Source: TPA_inf: Saccharomyces | Lineage: Eukaryota | Direction: 5' to 3' | Length of the DNA: 64,000 nt | NCBI GenBank assembly: GCA_000146045.2 | Contig: BK006945.2 | Location: forward strand, 672,001-736,000 | Shown: in pieces, positions 1,335 through 38,990 of the stretch | Layout: each line of letters starts with the position of its first letter | Position numbering within the stretch: the first letter of the stretch is position 1 | Made by a program: the position numbers and the translations under genes | Notes under the pieces: model-generated | Database searches by the model: none | Told to the model about the DNA's origin: nothing | The model's input: the letters and a program-made list of their open reading frames with translations, nothing else

Positions 1335-2426
1335 AGGTATATTAAAAAATTTACTATTGGTGCTCTTCGAGCATTGTTTTTTTTCTATATTTACAAACAA
1401 CAGCTTATTTTTTAATATTTCTCAAAAAATGAAGTTCGAATGATTATTTTAATTGAGTTTAGTGATGAAATCGATTGCAAATAATATAAACGTTGGTAAG
1501 CTCATCTAAACAATCGAAAGGAGGGATAGAAGACAGTAGGTGTTTGTGCTTTGGTCGGTTTTTCCATTCGGTGAATTCATACATCTCCTTTATTAATTTT
1601 AATGGATTCTTTACAAGGGATTTTCGGTTGCCAAAAACAGAGAACAAATGCGTAGAAATACTCAATGATGTCAATTTTTCAAAAAATGAATTAAATGATT
1701 GAAGTCACTTAATTTTTGTGGTTTTTTGGAGGTGGGTTGAGTGTACAACTCACTATAATTGATGAGATATTCGACGAACTTGTTACTTTTTTGGATTCCA
1801 GAATGTTTACTGAATTTTAAGAATTAATTAATTTGAGGCTAACCTGTATGGCATGGAATAACGAATCGACAAGAAGTCTCTTACTGTAACTTTCTTTTTT
1901 TTTGGTGCATCTATCGTTAAATACAATTTAAATATTACATTCATGTACTTACTCAATATAATAATCTGATTACTTCATACAATAGAAGAGAAAGAAACAG
2001 TCTCTAAAACTGCTGTCATAACGCGTGGTGTTGTGGTTTTGCTTAATTTTTTTAGACCCATGCACCAGATATTGATCCAATTTTTTTTTGTGGCTCTTTT
2101 GCCAATCGCTCTTATTAAGTAAGTTTACATCCGCGGTTATGTTTTGCGTCTAAATTTCATTTACAGTGATGGCGAGCTTGCGCGGCTATTTTTTATGCAG
2201 TTTATCATTTAGACACTCAGAAGCTGCAGTGATGTAAGATACTGCTTGAAACTACCGTTAGATTAATAATAAACAATTAGAACTGTCCTAATACATATAA
2301 ACTTATATGCTCCCTATCAATGGCATAACGTTACCATTCAATAAATTAACATTATCAATGCGTCAACAAAGGAATAGAACTATTTGAAAGGTCCAACCTT
2401 AATTTTTGACGTTTAATTGACTTGCC

Positions 2427-3455
2427 TTAGTTTTTTATTCTCACCTTTCCAAATTTTCTTTTTTTCTGTGGGTATTCTTCGACCAAAGAAGAACTTGATT
2501 TTGTTTTTTCTGGTGTAGCCTCAGATTCAGAAAAATTCTCCAGGCGAAGTTGCGAACTGGTACTACTTTCTCTAGATTTTGGCTTGAAATCTGTCTTTGG
2601 TTTAATTTTACCGCGGCTATTTGGTCGAGCCTCATTTGTAGGGTCTGCTTGCAATTCAAAATCATCATTATAAAAATGATTCACCGCAGGAAATCTGACG
2701 CGCTCTTTTTTGTTAAGTTCTCCAGATTCTTCAAACCGCGACACATCTTGAAATTTGTTTCTTAAAGATAATAATGTTTTTAATGAGTCCGCCAGAAATT
2801 CTTGATGCTGGAATTTTCCTTTATGTAGTAATTTTTTGATTATGTCATCGTCTGTGCATTGCTGCAGAGATTCATAATTCTTAGAATTTTCAGGAGCCCA
2901 TTGACTGATAACTTTACTCCCACCGTCTAAATCACGAAGAGAAATTAAAAGAAAATCTAAGCATTTTTGCTTTTCATTCAAAATATCCCGTTGTACATAG
3001 TGGTATTGGGTGGAAAGGTTTACCAATTTTAATAAAAGCATGCATAAACTTTGCAAAATCATATAGAACATATCCTTAGTAACATGTGAAGGTACGCTAT
3101 TTATGGAAACTGTAATATCCGCAGATACATCGAAACTAAAAACCAAATTTGAATCTACCAATCCAATTTGGTTAATTTCTTGAGGAGCTTGTAGAATGTC
3201 CATTAGTTTTAGTTTAATTAGATTTAATGATATACTATCCGTAAAACCTTGGCTCTGGCATTGCTGTGATAATTGAGTTTGTGAAAGTTTGAAAACGTAG
3301 GGAACTAAGCGCTCCAAGGAAACTAAAACAATCATTACAATTGTGGTTGGAGATGACATCGGTAGAAATAATAGGAGACAATTTCCCTCACCATTAATTT
3401 TTTTAACACACCATTCTGCATCACTTAGCTGCTGCCCTTTCAACTCAGAATCCAT
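2427..3455 (-). CDS. NEJ1: NHEJ regulator Nej1/Lif2, 342 aa.
   Basis: The ORF MMDSELKGQQLSDAEW... has GTG as its first codon (3456-3458), so the real ATG is at 3453-3455. Size and position (YLR265C) match. Confidence 0.85.
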   Translation of the reverse strand: MDSELKGQQLSDAEWCVKKINGEGNCLLLFLPMSSPTTIVMIVLVSLERLVPYVFKLSQTQLSQQCQSQGFTDSISLNLIKLKLMDILQAPQEINQIGLVDSNLVFSFDVSADITVSINSVPSHVTKDMFYMILQSLCMLLLKLVNLSTQYHYVQRDILNEKQKCLDFLLISLRDLDGGSKVISQWAPENSKNYESLQQCTDDDIIKKLLHKGKFQHQEFLADSLKTLLSLRNKFQDVSRFEESGELNKKERVRFPAVNHFYNDDFELQADPTNEARPNSRGKIKPKTDFKPKSRESSTSSQLRLENFSESEATPEKTKSSSSLVEEYPQKKRKFGKVRIKN

Positions 3456-3585
3456 CACACATGTGTAAGATTAACCTCCTATCTGGCCGTTGTTATGGTT
3501 ATTCTCCATAGGGTTTCCACTTATATGACACTATTTTGTGTTTGCCCGCTGCCAACACTATCATCCCTTTTTGGGACGAAAAAAT

Positions 3586-27998: not shown

Positions 27999-30900
27999 TC
28001 ACGTTAAAAAGCCGTAGTCATCATTAATCGTCCAAAAGTCTTCTACCGGACCAGATGTCATCATGTTATCCCAGTTAGAACGCTTTTTCCTGATGTCTGC
28101 GTTAGTTACTGTAGGAATAACATTGTCGAAATGCAGATTTGCGCTAGTGTTTGCTTCCACCTGTGTTTTAGGTCCATTCTTCTCTGTTTCGTCAAGATTA
28201 TATTGTACACCTTCCTGATTGGACATCATGAACAAATTTCTGTTATACGAAGGGTCATTCTGCGTCTGTTGAAAATTATTAGCGGTTACATTGTTTTCAG
28301 AACACATATTTTGTTGTTGATGTTGTTGCTGCTGTTTGTCCATGGACAGAGATGAAGGCTCTTGACTCTGGGGAAATATTGTTTGTAGTATGGACTTGCT
28401 ATTCAAAGCATCTAGAACGGAGTTATTGGTCCAGGTGGAAATATTGTTGATCATGTCATGAGCACCGTTGCTGAAAAGTATATCGCCCGAAGAAGAGCCA
28501 TTTCGAGCTTGTTTGACACTGACCGGAATTGAATTGCTAGTAAATGACGCTGGTATCGAGGAGATAATATTATTGCCATAATCTGCTCTTAGGGGTGATG
28601 TACTGAAATTTGATTCTTCGACATCTCTTAATTGCTTATTTTCACTTGTATGGTTAGAGAATATTGCAGATTGTAGAGGATTACTGTTGATCATACCATT
28701 GTTTAATTGATTCGTAAAATTGCTTTCTGAGAATCTTTGTGGAGAAGTAATATGTTGTTGTGGCTGCTCCCGCTGTTGTTGCGGCAGTGGTCGTGATACA
28801 TGCTGTTGCGGTAGCATATTGGAAGTTTGAGGATATGGAGTTGGGCTTTGCGTCATCGCTATTGGAATCGGATCCGAATGCGAAGAGGCTGTAGATATGC
28901 TAGAAGATTTTGAAGGACTTCTATTGGTCATAGTATCGGTGTTCAGGGACGATAGATACGCTTGTAAATTGTGCTGAGCTAGTTGCTGTTGTAGAAAGGC
29001 CTGCTGTTGAAATACTTGCCAATCAAACTCTGTTTGGTTGGTTGGTTTCTTGACGATATATTGGTCTTGAATAGGCCTTTCTACATCATTTTCCATAGTT
29101 ACGTTGTTGTTACGAACATACTGGCTGTTGTTGCCATTATTGCAGCTGTTGTTGGTAGTGCTTCTGCTATTACTTTCATTATCATTATTATTAACATTAT
29201 TATTATTATTACTATTATTATTATTATTGTTATTATTATTATTATTATCATTATTATTGTTGTGATTATTGTTGTGTTCTCTGTTGACGCTGCTGATGGT
29301 CATACCATTGTTATCATTGTTTACATTGATTTTCAGGTTTTTTTCTTGGGAAGAAGGAAACGATAATGTCGACGATGATGACGAAGAAGAAGATGATGAC
29401 GAAGAAGATGTTGTATAAGACATTGAAGAATTTGAAATACGTGACCTGTCATCCATTTTGGTTAATAGGTGAGCTAAACTTTTGGGTACAGAGGTCTTTT
29501 CTAAAACACCTTGCTTCTTCTTGAATTTCTCTTGTTCAGCCAAATCCACTTGTGAATTTTCCACAAAACCGGCGTGCTCTTCAGCTTGTCCTTTACCAAA
29601 TATTCTAGCCACAGCAGGCGGCATACCGCCATTATGAGATATATTTTTATCGTTTGAATTGGATAGATTAGCTGCATTTGCGGAGTTAGAATCATGAAGA
29701 GTATCCCCAGATGAAATTGCCTTATTGGCCTCATCATTGATGTTCTTGGGTTCAGTACGCTTGGCGACACTACTAGCCATGAAAATTAACTCAGAAGAGT
29801 CTGGACCACATCTTTCAATCAAATTACCTACCGTGGCATTCATTAACTGATCGAAAGTATCTCTAAAGGTTCTTGCAAAATTAGACCTTTCTGTCATAAC
29901 ATATAAACAAACGGAGCAAGCTCTCAAATCATCCATCGTCGAAAAGAGACTTGCACTGATTAAAGGTCTAGTATGCTTCGAAGCATCGCCTAATTTCTTC
30001 CTCCTTTGATCGTCAAAATTCCTGGCTAACCACATACAGTAGATTAAAGTTACGCCAGCTACAAAAACCGTATGCACTGCTGGTGTAGAATGACCATTAA
30101 GCGTTTTTTGATGGAATATCTTGTATAACTGACAAATTTGACCCGCAGCAGCTTGACATTCTCTAAATAGTCTATCCTCCGGGGCGAAAAATTCCAAATA
30201 TGGTTGTATAAGCAATCGCACTGATCTATAGTAATAAAGTTTTAGTGTCTCGTTTTCGAAATTTTTCACGTCAAGAGTGGAATAACTTTTTCTCCAAACT
30301 TCCAAATCTTCAAAAAATTTTCGTACTAGGGGCAATTGATCAATGGATTGCTTCACTGACCTGGAATCGTTTTTCAATAGCTGTAAAGTCTCTACAAATT
30401 GAGATTCAATTCTTCGCAGCTTTAGAGACTGATTGATGAATTGCACACCATGGTCATTGGTTGATGGAGCCGCCGCATGCACACCTTTTGTATAAAAAGA
30501 GTCGTTATTGAAAAGAGGTAAATTTATTTCCGACTCCTTGATTGTATAAGGTTTCCCCACAGCAACACAAATCATTCTTTCCAACAGGTAAACACACCAA
30601 AATAGTCGCAGTTTCTTATTTGCAAATGGATCATTAGGATACCATTGATTTAGATGAAGTTTCTTCTTGGATATGCCCATGACATCCTTGATTATGTCAT
30701 ATAGTATCAGAGAATCTCTATCAGTCCTAATAATGTAAAGGACAAGCAATGTCAACAGTTCTATTTGCTGAACATAATTCAAATGTAGACCACACTTAGT
30801 GATGTGACGGATAGCGGTGGAGAAATATCGGTGAGGTGGAAACCCCTTGTACTTACCTGTGGTCATCAGTAAGTAGGCGCTGATGCTGAAGACAAGCCAC

Positions 30901-32024
30901 ATTCTGCCGGATAGAAAATGAAATTCTATTTCAGAATACGAATGTGAATTCGACGGTGGTGCTGCGGAAGACGTGGCGGGAGAAGATGGTGGGATAAGAA
31001 TCTTGTTGTGGAGGTAGTGGTCATAAAAAGTATAGATTTCTTGTTCGTCTAAGATAGGGTACTTGAATTGTAATCTTGTGAAAAAAGTGTCCAAGAAGGA
31101 ACGTGACAGCTTCTCATTCAGTTCAAAAATAGGGTCATACATCAAAAACTCTTTTTTCAAATTGTATTTGGCAAAAATACACTTAGTGAAGTCCAGCGTC
31201 TCTAAAGGGTCATTCAAAAGGCTCGCGGATTGGCAGATAGCATTATTGTTGTTTATGTTGTTCGTACTGGCCGATGTATCGTTAGTGGCCGCATTAACGT
31301 TGCTGCCGTTATTGTTTGTGTTCTCCAGGGGTTTGTTGGAAGGAGATGGCAGCGGCAGTATGACCATATTGCTGCTGTTCGGTCTAGAGTAATCAGAAGT
31401 GTTGTTACTGAACAAATGAGAAACCTTCTTGTACTGGGATAATTCGTAGTTGTACTGGTTGCATCCCGGCGATAAATCGAGCAAAGTCTCCAAACTTTTT
31501 AGTTTTTTCTCCAAGAAAATCGTATACTGATCTTTGTCTTGCCTCATCAGGTTTGGATTGGAATTTGTCGTGACGGACTTTATCGTTTTCCTGAATTCAT
31601 TCGCGTCGCCAGCATCAACATTACTATTGCTAGTGGAAATGGGTTTTATTATCGTCATGTCATTCAGAGAAGTGGCAGCGCCAGCGCCAGCGCCAATACT
31701 GCTATCTTGCAGCTCACGTTTTATTACAGGATGAGGTGTAGGAGGTACAGTGCCAGCTGTAGGGGTGTTGTTGTTGGTGTTACTGTTCGAAGTGGAAGAA
31801 GAGTACTTGGAGGGCTGCACGCACTTTATTCCTGCTTTCAAACAGGCGGTACAACTGGGTAATTTATGGTCGCATCGTTGCTTTCTTCTTCTACAAAGAA
31901 GACAAGACCTGGAACGGCCCTTTTTGTCTTGCAACAAGACGTCTGTCCTGTTACCGGCCAGCTCCAGTTCTCTCTTCAACTGTTGTATTTTCTCCTGGCT
32001 AACATTCTTCCTTGGACGGCCCAT
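27999..32024 (-). CDS. YLR278C: Zn2Cys6 zinc-cluster protein YLR278C, 1341 aa, with long Asn-, Ser- and Gln-rich low-complexity regions.
   Basis: N-terminal CLLCRRRKQRCDHKLPSCTACLKAGIKC. A fungal transcription-factor middle homology region. Poly-N and poly-S tracts. Confidence 0.9.
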   Translation of the reverse strand: MGRPRKNVSQEKIQQLKRELELAGNRTDVLLQDKKGRSRSCLLCRRRKQRCDHKLPSCTACLKAGIKCVQPSKYSSSTSNSNTNNNTPTAGTVPPTPHPVIKRELQDSSIGAGAGAATSLNDMTIIKPISTSNSNVDAGDANEFRKTIKSVTTNSNPNLMRQDKDQYTIFLEKKLKSLETLLDLSPGCNQYNYELSQYKKVSHLFSNNTSDYSRPNSSNMVILPLPSPSNKPLENTNNNGSNVNAATNDTSASTNNINNNNAICQSASLLNDPLETLDFTKCIFAKYNLKKEFLMYDPIFELNEKLSRSFLDTFFTRLQFKYPILDEQEIYTFYDHYLHNKILIPPSSPATSSAAPPSNSHSYSEIEFHFLSGRMWLVFSISAYLLMTTGKYKGFPPHRYFSTAIRHITKCGLHLNYVQQIELLTLLVLYIIRTDRDSLILYDIIKDVMGISKKKLHLNQWYPNDPFANKKLRLFWCVYLLERMICVAVGKPYTIKESEINLPLFNNDSFYTKGVHAAAPSTNDHGVQFINQSLKLRRIESQFVETLQLLKNDSRSVKQSIDQLPLVRKFFEDLEVWRKSYSTLDVKNFENETLKLYYYRSVRLLIQPYLEFFAPEDRLFRECQAAAGQICQLYKIFHQKTLNGHSTPAVHTVFVAGVTLIYCMWLARNFDDQRRKKLGDASKHTRPLISASLFSTMDDLRACSVCLYVMTERSNFARTFRDTFDQLMNATVGNLIERCGPDSSELIFMASSVAKRTEPKNINDEANKAISSGDTLHDSNSANAANLSNSNDKNISHNGGMPPAVARIFGKGQAEEHAGFVENSQVDLAEQEKFKKKQGVLEKTSVPKSLAHLLTKMDDRSRISNSSMSYTTSSSSSSSSSSSSSTLSFPSSQEKNLKINVNNDNNGMTISSVNREHNNNHNNNNDNNNNNNNNNNNSNNNNNVNNNDNESNSRSTTNNSCNNGNNSQYVRNNNVTMENDVERPIQDQYIVKKPTNQTEFDWQVFQQQAFLQQQLAQHNLQAYLSSLNTDTMTNRSPSKSSSISTASSHSDPIPIAMTQSPTPYPQTSNMLPQQHVSRPLPQQQREQPQQHITSPQRFSESNFTNQLNNGMINSNPLQSAIFSNHTSENKQLRDVEESNFSTSPLRADYGNNIISSIPASFTSNSIPVSVKQARNGSSSGDILFSNGAHDMINNISTWTNNSVLDALNSKSILQTIFPQSQEPSSLSMDKQQQQHQQQNMCSENNVTANNFQQTQNDPSYNRNLFMMSNQEGVQYNLDETEKNGPKTQVEANTSANLHFDNVIPTVTNADIRKKRSNWDNMMTSGPVEDFWTINDDYGFLT

Positions 32025-32492
32025 TATTATTTACGTGTATTGTTGGTAGTTAGCCCGAAGATTATGAGTACGTGAAATACACTTGTCTTTATGAAAGAGT
32101 GGAAAAATGGTGGGGAGTAAGTTATACTATTGACGTGTAAAAAAAAAAAAAAAAAAATGTTAATGGAACGACCGATCTAAAGAACCATATATAATGAATG
32201 ACTAAAAAAAGCAAAATAGTTAAGAATCCAAGAAAGATACTAAGAAAAGGCGAAAAGAAAAAGAAAAAGTATGTCCGCTAACAAAGATTAGCGTATAAGC
32301 ACCACACGATGCGATTCAGGTCTCAACGTGCAGTGTGCAGGAGCAGGAACTATTCAATGTATTGTTGTTCCAGGGTTTTTGTTCGCAACCCACGTCTTGA
32401 CCGACGGTACCCGCAGGTGAAAATTTTAGCAAAGTTACACTTTTTTTTTCATTTTTTTTTTTCTTTTCTCCTCCATCTAATTTCACCTGCGG

Positions 32493-32960
32493 TTACCGGC
32501 GGAATAACTCGCGCACCATTTCTCTGTCTCGGGCCTCGCGTTCCTCTTTTTCGACTCGAGCGGCCTCTTCACGCTGCTCGTACTTCGCGACGCTGCGCCG
32601 GCGCTGCGAGCGTTTCTGTTGACGGTGCCACTGTAGAAGCGCCTCCTCTCTGGACGGCATCGTGTCGTACGACGCCGCAAGTTCGCGCGCGAGCTTAAGC
32701 CGGGCAAGCTTTCGATTTTGCTCACGTGACCGCGTTTCTTGGCACTCGACAACGATCCCAGTGGGTTCATGCCGTAGTTGTACCTTAGAATTACACTTAT
32801 TAATCTTTTGGCCACCGGGCCCTCTGCCGCCATGAAGGAATTTCTCAGTGCATTGTGCTTCCATCTCTGGCGTGAACTTTGGTCGCGGTGGTAGCTTGTT
32901 CTTTTTAATCAGCAGCACTGCGGCACTGCTGATTGACCTCTTACTCGCTCCCCTCATCAT
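32493..32960 (-). CDS. YLR281C: Release-factor-family (RF-1/peptidyl-tRNA hydrolase domain, GGQ motif) protein YLR281C, 155 aa. Likely a mitochondrial ribosome-rescue factor.
   Basis: GGQ motif in HGGRGPGGQKINK and a basic C-terminal tail. The coding sequence is strikingly GC/CpG-rich for yeast. Confidence 0.85.
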   Translation of the reverse strand: MMRGASKRSISSAAVLLIKKNKLPPRPKFTPEMEAQCTEKFLHGGRGPGGQKINKCNSKVQLRHEPTGIVVECQETRSREQNRKLARLKLARELAASYDTMPSREEALLQWHRQQKRSQRRRSVAKYEQREEAARVEKEEREARDREMVRELFRR

Positions 32961-33185
32961 AGTTTACTAGTCTCGGATTCTTCTGCGCTTTTTCCAGGGT
33001 CGCATAGCTTGTAGGTTGGTAGCATAGACTTATATATAAACTCATATCCGTTCTAGGAACGTATAGCGCGCTATGGTAGTCCGGGGAAAATGCACAGTTT
33101 AGTTAAGTGTATAGTAATTTTATCGATAAAGGAAGAATGGAAGAGGTTTATGTATACATGTAAACTCTGAACATCTAATAGACTA

Positions 33186-34130
33186 ATGATGCGGTTAATA
33201 CGTACATTGCCGCTTCGATGCTTCAAAACTAGAATACGGCGGCAAGGCTCGTTGTTGTGTTTGCGGTGCTTTAGTTCGTATTCAAAACCACTTTTGCAGA
33301 AATCAATGTCATTGAAAAATATCCAGTTATCAGACCTATCCTCATCGCCATTATCCAAGAACAAGGAGAAGCAGGAGAAGCCAGAGAAGGAAAACGAAGG
33401 AAAGCACTCCATTGGCCTGTTAGACAGATTTTCAGAGGACTTTATTACTCAGGGCAATGGATTGAAACCTACTACTTCACAAAATCAATTGGATACTATA
33501 AAGTTTTATCAAATGCTTCGTGAAAGAGGCAATTTTTCCGATGAACAATGTAAAATTATCATAGCTCTATTGTTGCAACTACTAAATGATCAGTTTTATT
33601 CCTGTTACAATGATTTGTTCTTAAGGGATATGGAGCTGAATAAACAATCACATTTGTTCAGCTCGCTAGAAACAGAATTGAAATTCGCAATTCAAAACTC
33701 TAGAGACACGCAACTAAATGAGCACCACTTGCAATTATTAAAACTCAAGAGAGAACTTAACTCAATCCATGATGAACTGAATGAAATCATAATAGATCTT
33801 TTGCAAAAGGACGCTAAATTAGAATTTAACAATCAAAAATTAGAAAACACCCTTTTGTATCGACAATTAAACCTGAAATTGAACGACTGTTCTAACAAGA
33901 TTCAAACCAAGATACTGGGGGATATCAGGTCACATATCGAAAATTTAAGATGGCAGACAACCAGAAGCGGTCTTTTGGTAATATTAGTCCTTGTTTGTTC
34001 GATTATGATCGGTGTAAGCGCATCTAAGAAGGAACGCCCAGGTTTACAGGAACCTGAGGAACCTGAAATTTTAGCACCAAAGGAAGACATTGATACTACC
34101 TTCCCTCAAGATCAACATGATATAGATTAA
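33186..34130 (+). CDS. YLR283W: YLR283W, a 314 aa coiled-coil protein with a C-terminal transmembrane segment. Probably mitochondrial.
   Basis: A basic/amphipathic N-terminus (MMRLIRTLPLRCFKTRIRRQ) suggests a mitochondrial presequence. Hydrophobic segment LLVILVLVCSIMIGV. Position matches. Confidence 0.8.
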   Translation: MMRLIRTLPLRCFKTRIRRQGSLLCLRCFSSYSKPLLQKSMSLKNIQLSDLSSSPLSKNKEKQEKPEKENEGKHSIGLLDRFSEDFITQGNGLKPTTSQNQLDTIKFYQMLRERGNFSDEQCKIIIALLLQLLNDQFYSCYNDLFLRDMELNKQSHLFSSLETELKFAIQNSRDTQLNEHHLQLLKLKRELNSIHDELNEIIIDLLQKDAKLEFNNQKLENTLLYRQLNLKLNDCSNKIQTKILGDIRSHIENLRWQTTRSGLLVILVLVCSIMIGVSASKKERPGLQEPEEPEILAPKEDIDTTFPQDQHDID

Positions 34131-36447: not shown

Positions 36448-38136
36448 TTAAAAGTAATTGCTTTCCAAATAAGAGAAATTACATTGGGTATAGACTGAGT
36501 CGCCGGAGTCATAAGCATAACATGTGGTTCCAGAAGCACATTCCATGTAAACCCAAGCGCTATGATCACAAACGGCGAACTTCCCATCAGCAGAGCATGC
36601 AATTTCACCTTCAGTACAGGTAGATTTACCGTTCAATTTACCAGCCGCATATTGAGCATTCAATTCTTTAGCCAATGTACGAGCTGTACTGTCTGAGCTT
36701 GTACTACCTGAGCTTGTACTACCTGAGCTTGTACTGGTCGTTGTTGGGGAAAGCGTACTAGTAGTAGCTGTCTGTAGGGAAACGACAGAAGAACTCTTCG
36801 TTGCTGGCGAAAGAGTACTAGTGATAGCTGTTTGAATTGGGGCCGAAGAAACTATGCTAGTAGTAGTTGTTTGAGGGGTCACCAAGGCAGCACTGGTTAT
36901 TTGGGAAGATAGAGTAGTTTTCATACTTGTGATAGCAACTGAATTTAAAGTGCTCTCTGTTGTGGTGGTACCTAGACTAGATTTTGTCTTGGTGCTACTC
37001 GTCAATGTTTTTGTAGTTTGAGTAATTGATGTTTTGATAGCGCTGCTTGCAGTTGGAGATAAAGTAACTTTGCTTTTACTTTGTGTAGATGTCGTAGATT
37101 GTGTGGTCTTTTTCTGAGAAGTTGAAGCAGATGAAGTTGAAGCAGATGAAGTTGAGGCTGCTGAGGTTTTTGAGGTGGCAACTGTAGTAGTGGCGGTCTG
37201 GCTAGCACTTGTTAGCAAATTCTTCAAAATCTCAACATATGGTTCACCATTTAGCTCGTTGGAAAAGGCTTGAGATGCATCCCATAACGCAATACCACCA
37301 AAAGAACTTGAAGAGGCAATATCTGCAATAGTTGATTCCAATAAAGAAGTGTCAGAAATATAACCAGAGCCAGCAGCAGAAGCAGAACCAGGTAAACCTA
37401 AGAACAGTTTGATATTTTTATTTGGGGATACAGTTTGAGCATAGGTTAACCAAGTATCCCAATTGAATTGACCACTCACACTGCAGTAATTATTGTAAAA
37501 TTGGATGAACGCAAAATCAATGTCTGCATTTTCCAACAAGTCACCAACAGAAGCATCCGGGTATGGACATTGTGGTGCGGCAGAAAGGTAATATTGCTTT
37601 GTACCTTCGGCAAACAAAGTTCTTAACTTGGTAGCTAACGCACTATAGCCTACTTCGTTGTTGTTTTCAATATCAAAATCAAAACCATCAACGACTGCTG
37701 AGTCAAATGGTCTCTCACTGGCACCTGTACCTTCACCGAAAGTATCCCATAAAGTTTGTGCAAAAGTTTCCGCTTGAGAATCATCTGAAAAGAGGTAGCT
37801 ACCAGATGCACCACCTAATGATAATAGAACTTTCTTTCCTAGGGACTGGCAAGTTTCAATATCTTCAGCAATCTGGGTGCAGTGAAGTAAGCCATCAGAA
37901 AAAGTATCAGAGCATGCGTTGGCAAAGTTCAAACCAAGGGTTGGAAATTGGTTCAAGAAAGATAATAGGAAAATATCAGCATCAGAAGATTCACAGTAAG
38001 TAGCTAAGGATTCTTGCGTTCCTGCTGAGTTTTGACCCCAATAAACAGCAATATTTGTGTTAGCAGACCTATCAAAGGCATCGGTTGGCAGTAGTAAGAA
38101 TTGTGTGAATAGAAGAATGATGTAAAGGAGTGACAT
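36448..38136 (-). CDS. CTS1: Endochitinase Cts1 (GH18) with a Ser/Thr-rich linker and a C-terminal chitin-binding domain, 562 aa.
   Basis: Signal peptide, GH18 catalytic region (DGFDFDIE), long S/T-rich repeats, C-terminal Cys-rich domain. Confidence 0.95.
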   Translation of the reverse strand: MSLLYIILLFTQFLLLPTDAFDRSANTNIAVYWGQNSAGTQESLATYCESSDADIFLLSFLNQFPTLGLNFANACSDTFSDGLLHCTQIAEDIETCQSLGKKVLLSLGGASGSYLFSDDSQAETFAQTLWDTFGEGTGASERPFDSAVVDGFDFDIENNNEVGYSALATKLRTLFAEGTKQYYLSAAPQCPYPDASVGDLLENADIDFAFIQFYNNYCSVSGQFNWDTWLTYAQTVSPNKNIKLFLGLPGSASAAGSGYISDTSLLESTIADIASSSSFGGIALWDASQAFSNELNGEPYVEILKNLLTSASQTATTTVATSKTSAASTSSASTSSASTSQKKTTQSTTSTQSKSKVTLSPTASSAIKTSITQTTKTLTSSTKTKSSLGTTTTESTLNSVAITSMKTTLSSQITSAALVTPQTTTTSIVSSAPIQTAITSTLSPATKSSSVVSLQTATTSTLSPTTTSTSSGSTSSGSTSSDSTARTLAKELNAQYAAGKLNGKSTCTEGEIACSADGKFAVCDHSAWVYMECASGTTCYAYDSGDSVYTQCNFSYLESNYF

Positions 38137-38676: not shown

Positions 38677-38702
38677 ACCAGCATTTCCAATTTTTCACCA
38701 GC
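38677..38702. promoter_or_regulatory. Two Ace2/Swi5-type ACCAGC motifs 20 bp apart, about 540-565 bp upstream of CTS1.
   Basis: ACCAGC at 38677-38682 and at 38697-38702. CTS1 is the classic Ace2 target, with its upstream activating sequence in this region. Confidence 0.5.
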
Positions 38703-38990
38703 GGCAAAGAAAAATACCAACAAGCAGGAATCACACCCACGCATCTCATTTTGCGTTACTATGACAACTACAAAATTTGAATTTGTTAACGAGAATGACG
38801 TATATAAGTTCGATTTTGTTGAGGATATCCCACATATTCCCACCAACCAACCACTATATTAATGGACATGGTTTTTGCCGTGACCGTGGATCTCGCAGCT
38901 ACACAATGATATCTCTTGTATCCGTTTTAGCATGAATTTCTAAACAAGACTGATTATATACCATGCACTGTAACATTCAGAGAAAATATA

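Follow-up and report, generated by a model that had tools for sequence, protein, structure and literature searches.

The spacer between RSO55 and YLR278C in Saccharomyces cerevisiae holds an inverted repeat directly after the RSO55 stop codon. By aligning the Saccharomyces loci we show that both arms, taken as boxes of sequence, were present in the ancestor of the genus and that purifying selection has since preserved each box for its own sequence. The same alignments show that the pairing between the two boxes has not been maintained by compensation. Since the sequence of the arms is conserved and their pairing is not, we tentatively read the repeat as ordinary conserved spacer DNA, that is, as two sequence-constrained boxes flanking a poly(dA:dT) tract of the terminator/promoter spacer, and not as an RNA hairpin. 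This is a possible reading that we prefer without holding it firmly, and the alternatives are weighed against it below.

Anatomy and setting of the repeat

The window (the whole 64-kb stretch of DNA that was analysed) contains the following features around the repeat.

27999-32024, minus strand: YLR278C, the downstream tandem gene (1341 aa), with Zn(2)Cys6 and Fungal_trans domains.
32182-32198, minus strand: the TATA-like sequence TTATATATG, conserved in the spacer alignment and called TATA-like from the consensus.
32296-32373, minus strand: three more spacer footprints, with conservation at least that of the arms and up to 100% identity over 12 nt.
32401-32422, minus strand: the 3' arm of the repeat, in mRNA sense TTTCACCTGCGGGTACCGTCGG, with its perfect core at 32411-32422 and a weakly conserved outer part at 32401-32410.
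32410-32427, minus strand: the footprint AAAATTTTCACCTGCGGG, which includes the 3'-arm core and has a column identity of 0.89-0.92.
32423-32480, minus strand: the loop of 58 nt, A-rich in the mRNA and poly(dA:dT) in the DNA, which holds a T9 and a T11 run on the plus strand and is poorly conserved in both sequence and length.
32481-32502, minus strand: the 5' arm, in mRNA sense CCGCCGGTAACCGCAGGTGAAA, as given by the repeat finder, with its perfect core at 32481-32492.
32493-32502, minus strand: the outer part of the 5' arm, formed by the TAA stop and the last Arg-Arg codons of RSO55.
32493-32960, minus strand: the RSO55 (PTH3, YLR281C) ORF of 155 aa, with an RF-1 domain and ending in ELFRR before the stop.

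The product of the 32493-32960 frame is 99% identical to Rso55p (YLR281C), which is a mitochondrial release-factor-like rescue factor. The gene is also listed as PTH3 (PMC7940416). The spacer between RSO55 and YLR278C measures 468 bp; it is at once the terminator of RSO55 and the region upstream of its tandem neighbour YLR278C. An earlier reading of this DNA from its letters (the sequence-only reading) had taken the YLR278C promoter for a divergent one, which was wrong. Because both genes share the minus strand, the repeat (387-468 bp from the YLR278C ATG) lies in a tandem spacer and not in a divergent promoter. The conserved TTATATATG at 32182-32198 is probably the core promoter of YLR278C, and an RSO55 3' UTR could then reach no further than this element. 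RSO55 and YLR278C follow each other in the same order in S. paradoxus, S. mikatae, S. arboricola, S. uvarum and S. eubayanus (6 of the 7 lineages fetched), and at the S. kudriavzevii locus no downstream gene was called. The best GC-corrected fold of the window is an inverted repeat within the YLR278C ORF. Text searches on YLR281C, RSO55, YLR278C and the arm sequences found no literature on the repeat at the spacer.

On the plus strand the perfect arms, 12 nt each, are ccgcaggtgaaa (left, 32411-32422) and tttcacctgcgg (right, 32481-32492). The sequence-only reading had described them as perfect reverse complements enclosing about 58 nt and adjoining the YLR281C stop codon, and we found its coordinates and sequences to be correct, with a spacing of 58 nt and with tta at 32493-32495 being TAA on the minus strand. 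Its 12-bp core stands as well, but not its extension to about 14 bp with one bulge: the repeat finder gave arms of 22 nt (32401-32422 and 32481-32502), complementary at 20 of 22 positions and without a bulge. With the right arm extended to 22 nt, the stop codon and the last three RSO55 codons fall inside the repeat. As for the homopolymers said to lie in the loop, the T9 run is present (32441-32449), but the supposed T10 is a T11 (32452-32462). The 3' arm is followed in mRNA sense by GUCAAGACGUGGG (GUCAAGACG), with no U-tract, and the right arm is followed on the plus strand by AAUAACUCGC.

Taken by itself, a perfect inverted repeat with arms of 12 nt is no more than chance would give in 64 kb. 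With loops of at most 100 nt, the window had three other non-low-complexity arms of this kind, and a score of 12 was reached by most dinucleotide shuffles of the window. The extended repeat scored 16, which was the top of the window and above 60 of 60 shuffles (shuffle maximum 15). The minus-strand RNA of 32395-32510 folded at -36.0 kcal/mol (z -5.4), the plus-strand RNA of the repeat at -31.8 kcal/mol (z -4.8), and its single-stranded DNA at -21.3 kcal/mol (z -6.4). The stable minus-strand stem of the sequence-only reading is thereby borne out, with 20 pairs and -32 to -36 kcal/mol, provided that both arms are transcribed. When all 116-nt windows on both strands were ranked with correction for GC content, the repeat came about sixth (z -3.5), and five regions folded at least as well. 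The repeat is real and non-random, yet a fold of this strength is not rare.

Conservation of the arms and of their pairing

The whole spacer was aligned across the genus. S. paradoxus was represented by its reference assembly (L023) and by a second lineage (L001-L003), and S. mikatae by a locus (L004) whose protein clusters at 90% identity with that of S. mikatae IFO 1815; the other loci were those of S. arboricola, S. kudriavzevii, S. uvarum and S. eubayanus. We observed that in the eight Saccharomyces lineages both arms were conserved above background, while the A-rich loop was not. Against a mean column identity of 0.68 for the spacer, the 5' arm had 0.81-0.88 and the 12-mer core of the 3' arm 0.92, which is the 93rd percentile of intergenic 12-mers; the loop had 0.25-0.5, and the outer part of the 3' arm (32401-32410) had 0.60-0.69. 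The pattern CGGTRACCGCNGG of the 5' arm was invariant in the 7 Saccharomyces species, and the footprint AAAATTTTCACCTGCGGG could be generalised as TAAA(T)nTTTTCA-N-CT-N-CGGG. The arms were also unchanged in ten further S. cerevisiae strains, except for one wobble-compatible C>T, and the homopolymer length in the loop differed among 10 S. cerevisiae strains. The ancestral arms, as we infer them, were already complementary at 11-12 of 12 positions, and the repeat is thus as old as the genus Saccharomyces.

Conserved arms with a free loop are the classic pattern of a hairpin. RSO55 might accordingly carry a functional RNA hairpin that sequesters the stop and the last codons and so modulates translation termination, 3'-end processing or mRNA stability, with the lineages differing in their solution (S. 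cerevisiae with a long-range stem, one S. paradoxus lineage with a local one). We consider this unlikely, although several observations speak for it. The S. cerevisiae fold is very stable (-36 kcal/mol, z -5.4), the arms are invariant in 11 S. cerevisiae strains but for the one C>T that keeps a wobble, and RNAalifold gave a consensus stem of -16.3 kcal/mol. The long-range stem was predicted with a probability of at least 0.93 in 4 of the 7 species. Three directional substitutions in S. paradoxus, described in the next section, also created a local hairpin at the stop codon.

The behaviour of the individual pairs argues against such a hairpin. The sequence-only reading had proposed as a check that the inverted repeat be conserved in the sensu stricto yeasts with compensatory changes. 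The pairing potential was indeed partly retained in the relatives, but the compensatory changes were missing, since none of the 20 pairs had changed on both sides in the Saccharomyces alignment. By a hand count on the pair table there were about 25 stem substitution events, of which about 14 break pairs and about 10 lead to wobble pairs, and these counts are close to what transitions alone would yield. Paired cells made up 87.7%, which equals the 88.2% expected from shuffles. The covariation term of the RNAalifold consensus was +0.39, which is a penalty and no bonus. At column 135 of the 3' arm, for instance, the base may be C, G or T, and its partner stays G.

The strength of the fold also varied greatly between the species. 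Only S. cerevisiae (z -5.5) and S. kudriavzevii (z -3.2) had an exceptional fold, which was not clearly better than shuffles in the other five of the seven (z -1.6, -1.1, -0.06, +0.15 and -0.17). The long-range stem taken alone had -31.8 kcal/mol in S. cerevisiae vs -8 to -21 kcal/mol elsewhere, and its predicted probabilities in the seven species were 1.0, 1.0, 1.0, 0.93, 0.43, 0.16 and 0.00, with core-pair probabilities of 0.16 in S. arboricola and 0.00 in one S. paradoxus lineage. Outside the genus, in the four outgroup yeasts C. glabrata, N. dairenensis, K. africana and Z. rouxii, no hairpin was present at the stop or beyond it (z +0.8, +1.6, -0.1 and +2.0), and the downstream neighbours of the RSO55 orthologue differ in them. 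The repeat belongs to no Rfam family, as Rfam 15 gave no match over 31500-33500 at E of 1 or below. Furthermore, cleavage of the transcript is predicted just upstream of the 3' arm, in which case the 3' arm would be lost from the mature mRNA.

As far as the aligned loci can tell, the evolution of the repeat offers no evidence that an RNA structure was selected. That a genus-old RNA structure enclosing the stop (long-range in most species, and re-evolved as a local one in one S. paradoxus lineage) tunes RSO55 termination or 3'-end choice seems to us improbable. A comparison may be made here with the double-stranded structures that stabilise yeast mRNA 3' ends, in which U-rich tracts reportedly pair with the poly(A) tail or with 3'-end sequences. 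Stabilising structures at yeast mRNA 3' ends are the subject of a paper by Moqtaderi, Geisberg and Struhl (PMC4178928). The RSO55 repeat resembles them in that its stem is made from 3'-UTR sequences near the mRNA end; it differs in that its loop is A-rich and its 5' arm includes the stop codon.

The S. paradoxus palindrome and other proposed origins of the repeat

In the S. paradoxus reference, the post-stop box has undergone one derived change (A>C), and the second S. paradoxus lineage, represented by three independent samples, has two further changes (G>A and A>G). We observed that all three changes give a Watson-Crick pair where a local imperfect palindrome previously had a mismatch or wobble. 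As a result, the second lineage has UUCCACCGGU-AACC-GCCGGUGGAA, a perfect 11-bp local hairpin around the stop (-19.8 vs -6.3 kcal/mol before), and this local stem abolishes the long-range stem. Three random substitutions would reach the same pairing score with a probability of about 3e-4 (a post hoc estimate). The pattern fits selection on a structure or DNA palindrome, selection on a symmetric protein site, and quasi-palindrome-templated mutation, and does not discriminate among the three. A local stop-codon hairpin was rejected as a conserved alternative structure, since across the species 74% of its cells pair, which equals shuffles, and covariation is zero.

Templated mutation might also lie behind the repeat as a whole. 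It would then be a neutral palindrome, made and occasionally re-perfected by template-switch (quasi-palindrome) mutation in replication, and its apparent conservation would come from its overlap with unrelated constraints, those on the end of the coding sequence, on the context of the stop codon and on signals nearby. The S. paradoxus changes are what one would look for, since in 3 of 3 the derived base is the complement copied from the other half-site, which is how quasi-palindrome correction shows itself, and each completes a palindrome pair as at known template-switch hotspots. However, they are spread over both half-sites, so that at least two separate events would be needed, and the mechanism is read only from the pattern. 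Neutrality also agrees with the fact that comparable folds are common in the window. In addition, it is the outer stem that puts the S. cerevisiae repeat above chance, and this outer stem is itself unconserved. The core of the 3' arm, on the other hand, is more conserved than most of the intergenic DNA (93rd percentile) and is part of no ORF, which makes pure neutrality unlikely for the 3' arm. On balance we doubt that the whole repeat is neutral.

We also evaluated whether the repeat is the relic of a mobile element (with MITE-like terminal inverted repeats) or of a tRNA-Glu gene, and find this very improbable. Inverted repeats of 22 nt do surround an A/T-rich core, but one of these "terminal repeats" is conserved coding sequence. 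A MITE was rejected because a target-site duplication is absent (the flanks are ...cttga and aataa...) and the window has no further copies. As regards a tRNA, a tRNA-Glu(TTC) gene lies in antisense 21 nt (K. africana) and 109 nt (N. dairenensis) after the stop of the RSO55 orthologue, and a few short collinear matches to tRNA-Glu can be seen by eye. Local alignments were nevertheless equal to shuffles (both orientations, three scoring schemes, seven species), and this origin was rejected; neither ARAGORN nor Rfam found a tRNA in the region.

The sequence-only reading had likened the repeat to a bacterial intrinsic terminator and suggested that it may shield the YLR278C promoter. As such an element, the repeat would end RSO55 transcription. 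This is scarcely credible. The repeat does sit between two tandem genes, and a GC-rich stem is common to it and to intrinsic (Rho-independent) terminators. However, the loop of such terminators has 3-8 nt vs 58 nt here, the homopolymers are inside the loop (as A in the mRNA), the stem is followed by no U-tract, and the promoter to be shielded is tandem and not divergent. An intrinsic-terminator scan of 31900-33100 gave 0 sites. RSO55 is a eukaryotic gene transcribed by RNA polymerase II, which is not known to terminate by the intrinsic-terminator mechanism.

Finally, a stimulator of stop-codon readthrough, giving a C-terminally extended Rso55, has next to no probability. The RSO55 stop is followed by C, which is a weak termination context, and beyond it the frame meets no further stop for 58 codons in S. 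cerevisiae and for 120 in the second S. paradoxus lineage (L001), but the structure includes the stop codon rather than beginning a few nucleotides beyond it. A conserved readthrough extension was rejected, since five other species (5 of 7) have in-frame stops after 4-26 codons.

A possible reading: two sequence-constrained boxes in the spacer

In the reading that we tentatively prefer, the two boxes would be sequence-specific cis-elements instead of the arms of an RNA stem. Their cores are GC-rich (CCGCAGGTGAAA and TTTCACCTGCGG) and bracket the A-rich tract that starts at the RSO55 stop. The 5' box would represent the context formed by the last Arg codon, the stop and CCGCNGG. Its sequence is CGG-TRA-CCGCNGG, in which the final Arg codon CGG never varies, unlike the third position of the codon before it. 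CGG is a rare Arg codon in yeast. The 3' box, AAAATTTTCA-N-CTGCGGG, is a candidate protein-binding site in the YLR278C upstream region, and the CGG/CCG-rich palindromic character suggests a factor of the zinc-cluster type. The A-rich tract between the boxes may act as a positioning element and as a nucleosome-excluding tract.

Alternatively, the 3' box may be the Y(A)n cleavage site and U-rich element of a predicted RSO55 poly(A) signal. The yeast 3'-end signal consists of an efficiency element, an A-rich positioning element, a Y(A)n cleavage site and U-rich flanks. Here, the mRNA sense has A11 (T11 of the plus strand, 32452-32462) and A9 (T9, 32441-32449), and then GCUAAAAUUUUCA, which is conserved in the 7 species. 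The sequence thus has a putative A-rich positioning element followed by Y(A)n with U-rich flanks, as in a yeast poly(A) signal, and TAAA(T)nTTTTCA-N-CTGCGGG stands 10-25 nt after the A-rich tract in all seven species. A UA-rich efficiency element, however, is not evident upstream here. Such a spacing of the 3' box is compatible with Y(A)n cleavage next to a U-rich flank, and also with the DNA site of a factor. In the two-box reading the strong S. cerevisiae hairpin would be a by-product. Should the transcript be cleaved where predicted, at GCUAAAA immediately 5' of the 3' arm, the hairpin would form only in nascent or read-through RNA.

The rest of the spacer is in keeping with constrained boxes of this type. 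Footprints with conservation equal to or above that of the arms were found at 32356-32373, 32326-32350, 32296-32313, 32206-32217 and 32080-32091 and at TTATATATG, and so many equally or more conserved footprints give the usual picture of a yeast regulatory spacer. As with other Saccharomyces intergenic footprints near poly(dA:dT), islands of 85-100% identity stand in a spacer of 60-70%, beside a homopolymer of variable length. Unlike those, the two islands here are mutual reverse complements 58 nt apart, and they have been assigned no factor motif.

The arms were compared with a set of known yeast-factor motifs. A Reb1-like CGGGTA was not conserved, an E-box was of the form CA-N-CTG and not CACGTG, and an RRPE-like TGAAAATTTT was conserved. 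None of the motifs of Reb1, Mig1, Ume6/URS1, UASINO, Mot3, Abf1 and Rap1 appeared to match the positions that are truly conserved, and they were rejected. The box was absent from the promoter of the YLR278C orthologue of Z. rouxii. When the window was searched for an arm with 0-1 mismatch, only the two arms and one unrelated site were found. This near-copy (38693-38704, upstream of a 562-aa ORF, with a GCTGGT core) is at chance level and was rejected.

Several points count against the two-box reading. Independent constraints leave unexplained why the two 12-mers were complementary in the ancestor, and this complementarity needs a common cause: one and the same protein motif could serve in both places, the boxes could go back to an ancient inverted duplication or a template switch, or weak selection may have favoured their pairing. 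The freely varying positions differ between the arms, which counts weakly against one shared protein motif. A further point is the long-range stem, modelled with a probability of at least 0.93 in 4 of 7 species. Another is that the S. paradoxus changes, all three of which improve the local stem, could reflect selection for structure.

As plain cis-elements, the two boxes would be one more footprint pair, of use only for annotating the regulation of RSO55 and YLR278C. If the pairing is functional after all, a genus-wide hairpin enclosing a stop codon would be an unusual form of post-transcriptional control for a nuclear-encoded mitochondrial translation factor. In S. paradoxus, the stepwise perfection of the palindrome is a natural example of either structure selection or quasi-palindrome-templated mutation.

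Palindrome and reading frames at the RSO55 stop codon

In S. paradoxus, a palindrome was observed at the RSO55 stop codon, at the following positions:

L001 (second S. paradoxus lineage), 3450-3480, and likewise in L002 and L003 of that lineage: stop-codon palindrome
L023 (S. paradoxus reference locus), 1950-1995: stop-codon palindrome

This palindrome has been perfected stepwise within the species, with one change in the reference and three in the second lineage. All of these changes raise pairing (-19.8 vs -6.3 kcal/mol), and the probability of such pairing-improving substitutions was about 3e-4, a figure obtained post hoc.

Past the RSO55 stop (window 32319-32492, minus strand), S. cerevisiae has 58 open codons in frame and one S. 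paradoxus lineage has 120; in five other species an in-frame stop follows after 4-26 codons. Two mechanical ORFs overlap both the RSO55 ORF and the inverted repeat 3' of its stop: one of 129 aa (32309-32698, plus strand) and one of 116 aa (32483-32833, minus strand), the latter ending within the right arm. We found no evidence for gene status of either one. The 3' half of RSO55 (32496-32700, minus strand) has a GC content unusually high for yeast and many CGN arginine codons. The final codon is the rare CGG, invariant in seven species.

When we examined the orthologous loci of other yeasts, a tRNA-Glu(TTC) was seen antisense past the RSO55-orthologue stop:

L020 (N. dairenensis), 2167-2238, minus strand: tRNA-Glu(TTC), 109 nt past the stop
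L021 (K. africana), 1992-2064, minus strand: tRNA-Glu(TTC), 21 nt past the stop

At the corresponding position in Saccharomyces this tRNA is absent, and a test for a relic of it was negative.

Other repeats in the window

The 1341-aa zinc-cluster ORF contains a perfect 13-bp inverted repeat, TGTAGAAAGGCCT (28990-29002 / 29073-29085). Once GC content is corrected for, no other 116-nt stretch of the window folds as stably as 28981-29096 on the plus strand (-42.5 kcal/mol, z -5.0).

CCGCTGGTGAAA (38693-38704, minus strand), in the spacer 5' of the 562-aa ORF 36448..38136 (minus strand), has one mismatch to the repeat-arm sequence, a similarity at chance level. It contains GCTGGT, with AACCAGC close by; we take these to be Ace2/Swi5-type cores.

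Conserved sequences 5' of YLR278C

An 18-nt plus-strand A run, poly(dA:dT) (32140-32157), and the conserved TTATATATG (32182-32198) lie 120-170 bp 5' of the ATG of YLR278C. The other species also have the homopolymer, though its length differs among them.

Alignment of seven Saccharomyces species revealed three near-invariant intergenic blocks within 32296-32373:

GGAACAACAATAC: conserved block
CTGCTSCTGCACA(TT)CTGCACGT: conserved block, 100% identity at 32326-32337
ATCRCAYCGTGTGGTG: conserved block

The complement of GGAACAACAATAC contains ATTGTT, an HMG/Rox1-like sequence. No Rfam match was obtained for the blocks (31500-33500 searched, E<=1). A coding role is disfavoured, since S. uvarum and S. 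eubayanus carry a 2-nt indel there. The blocks are probably upstream elements of YLR278C.
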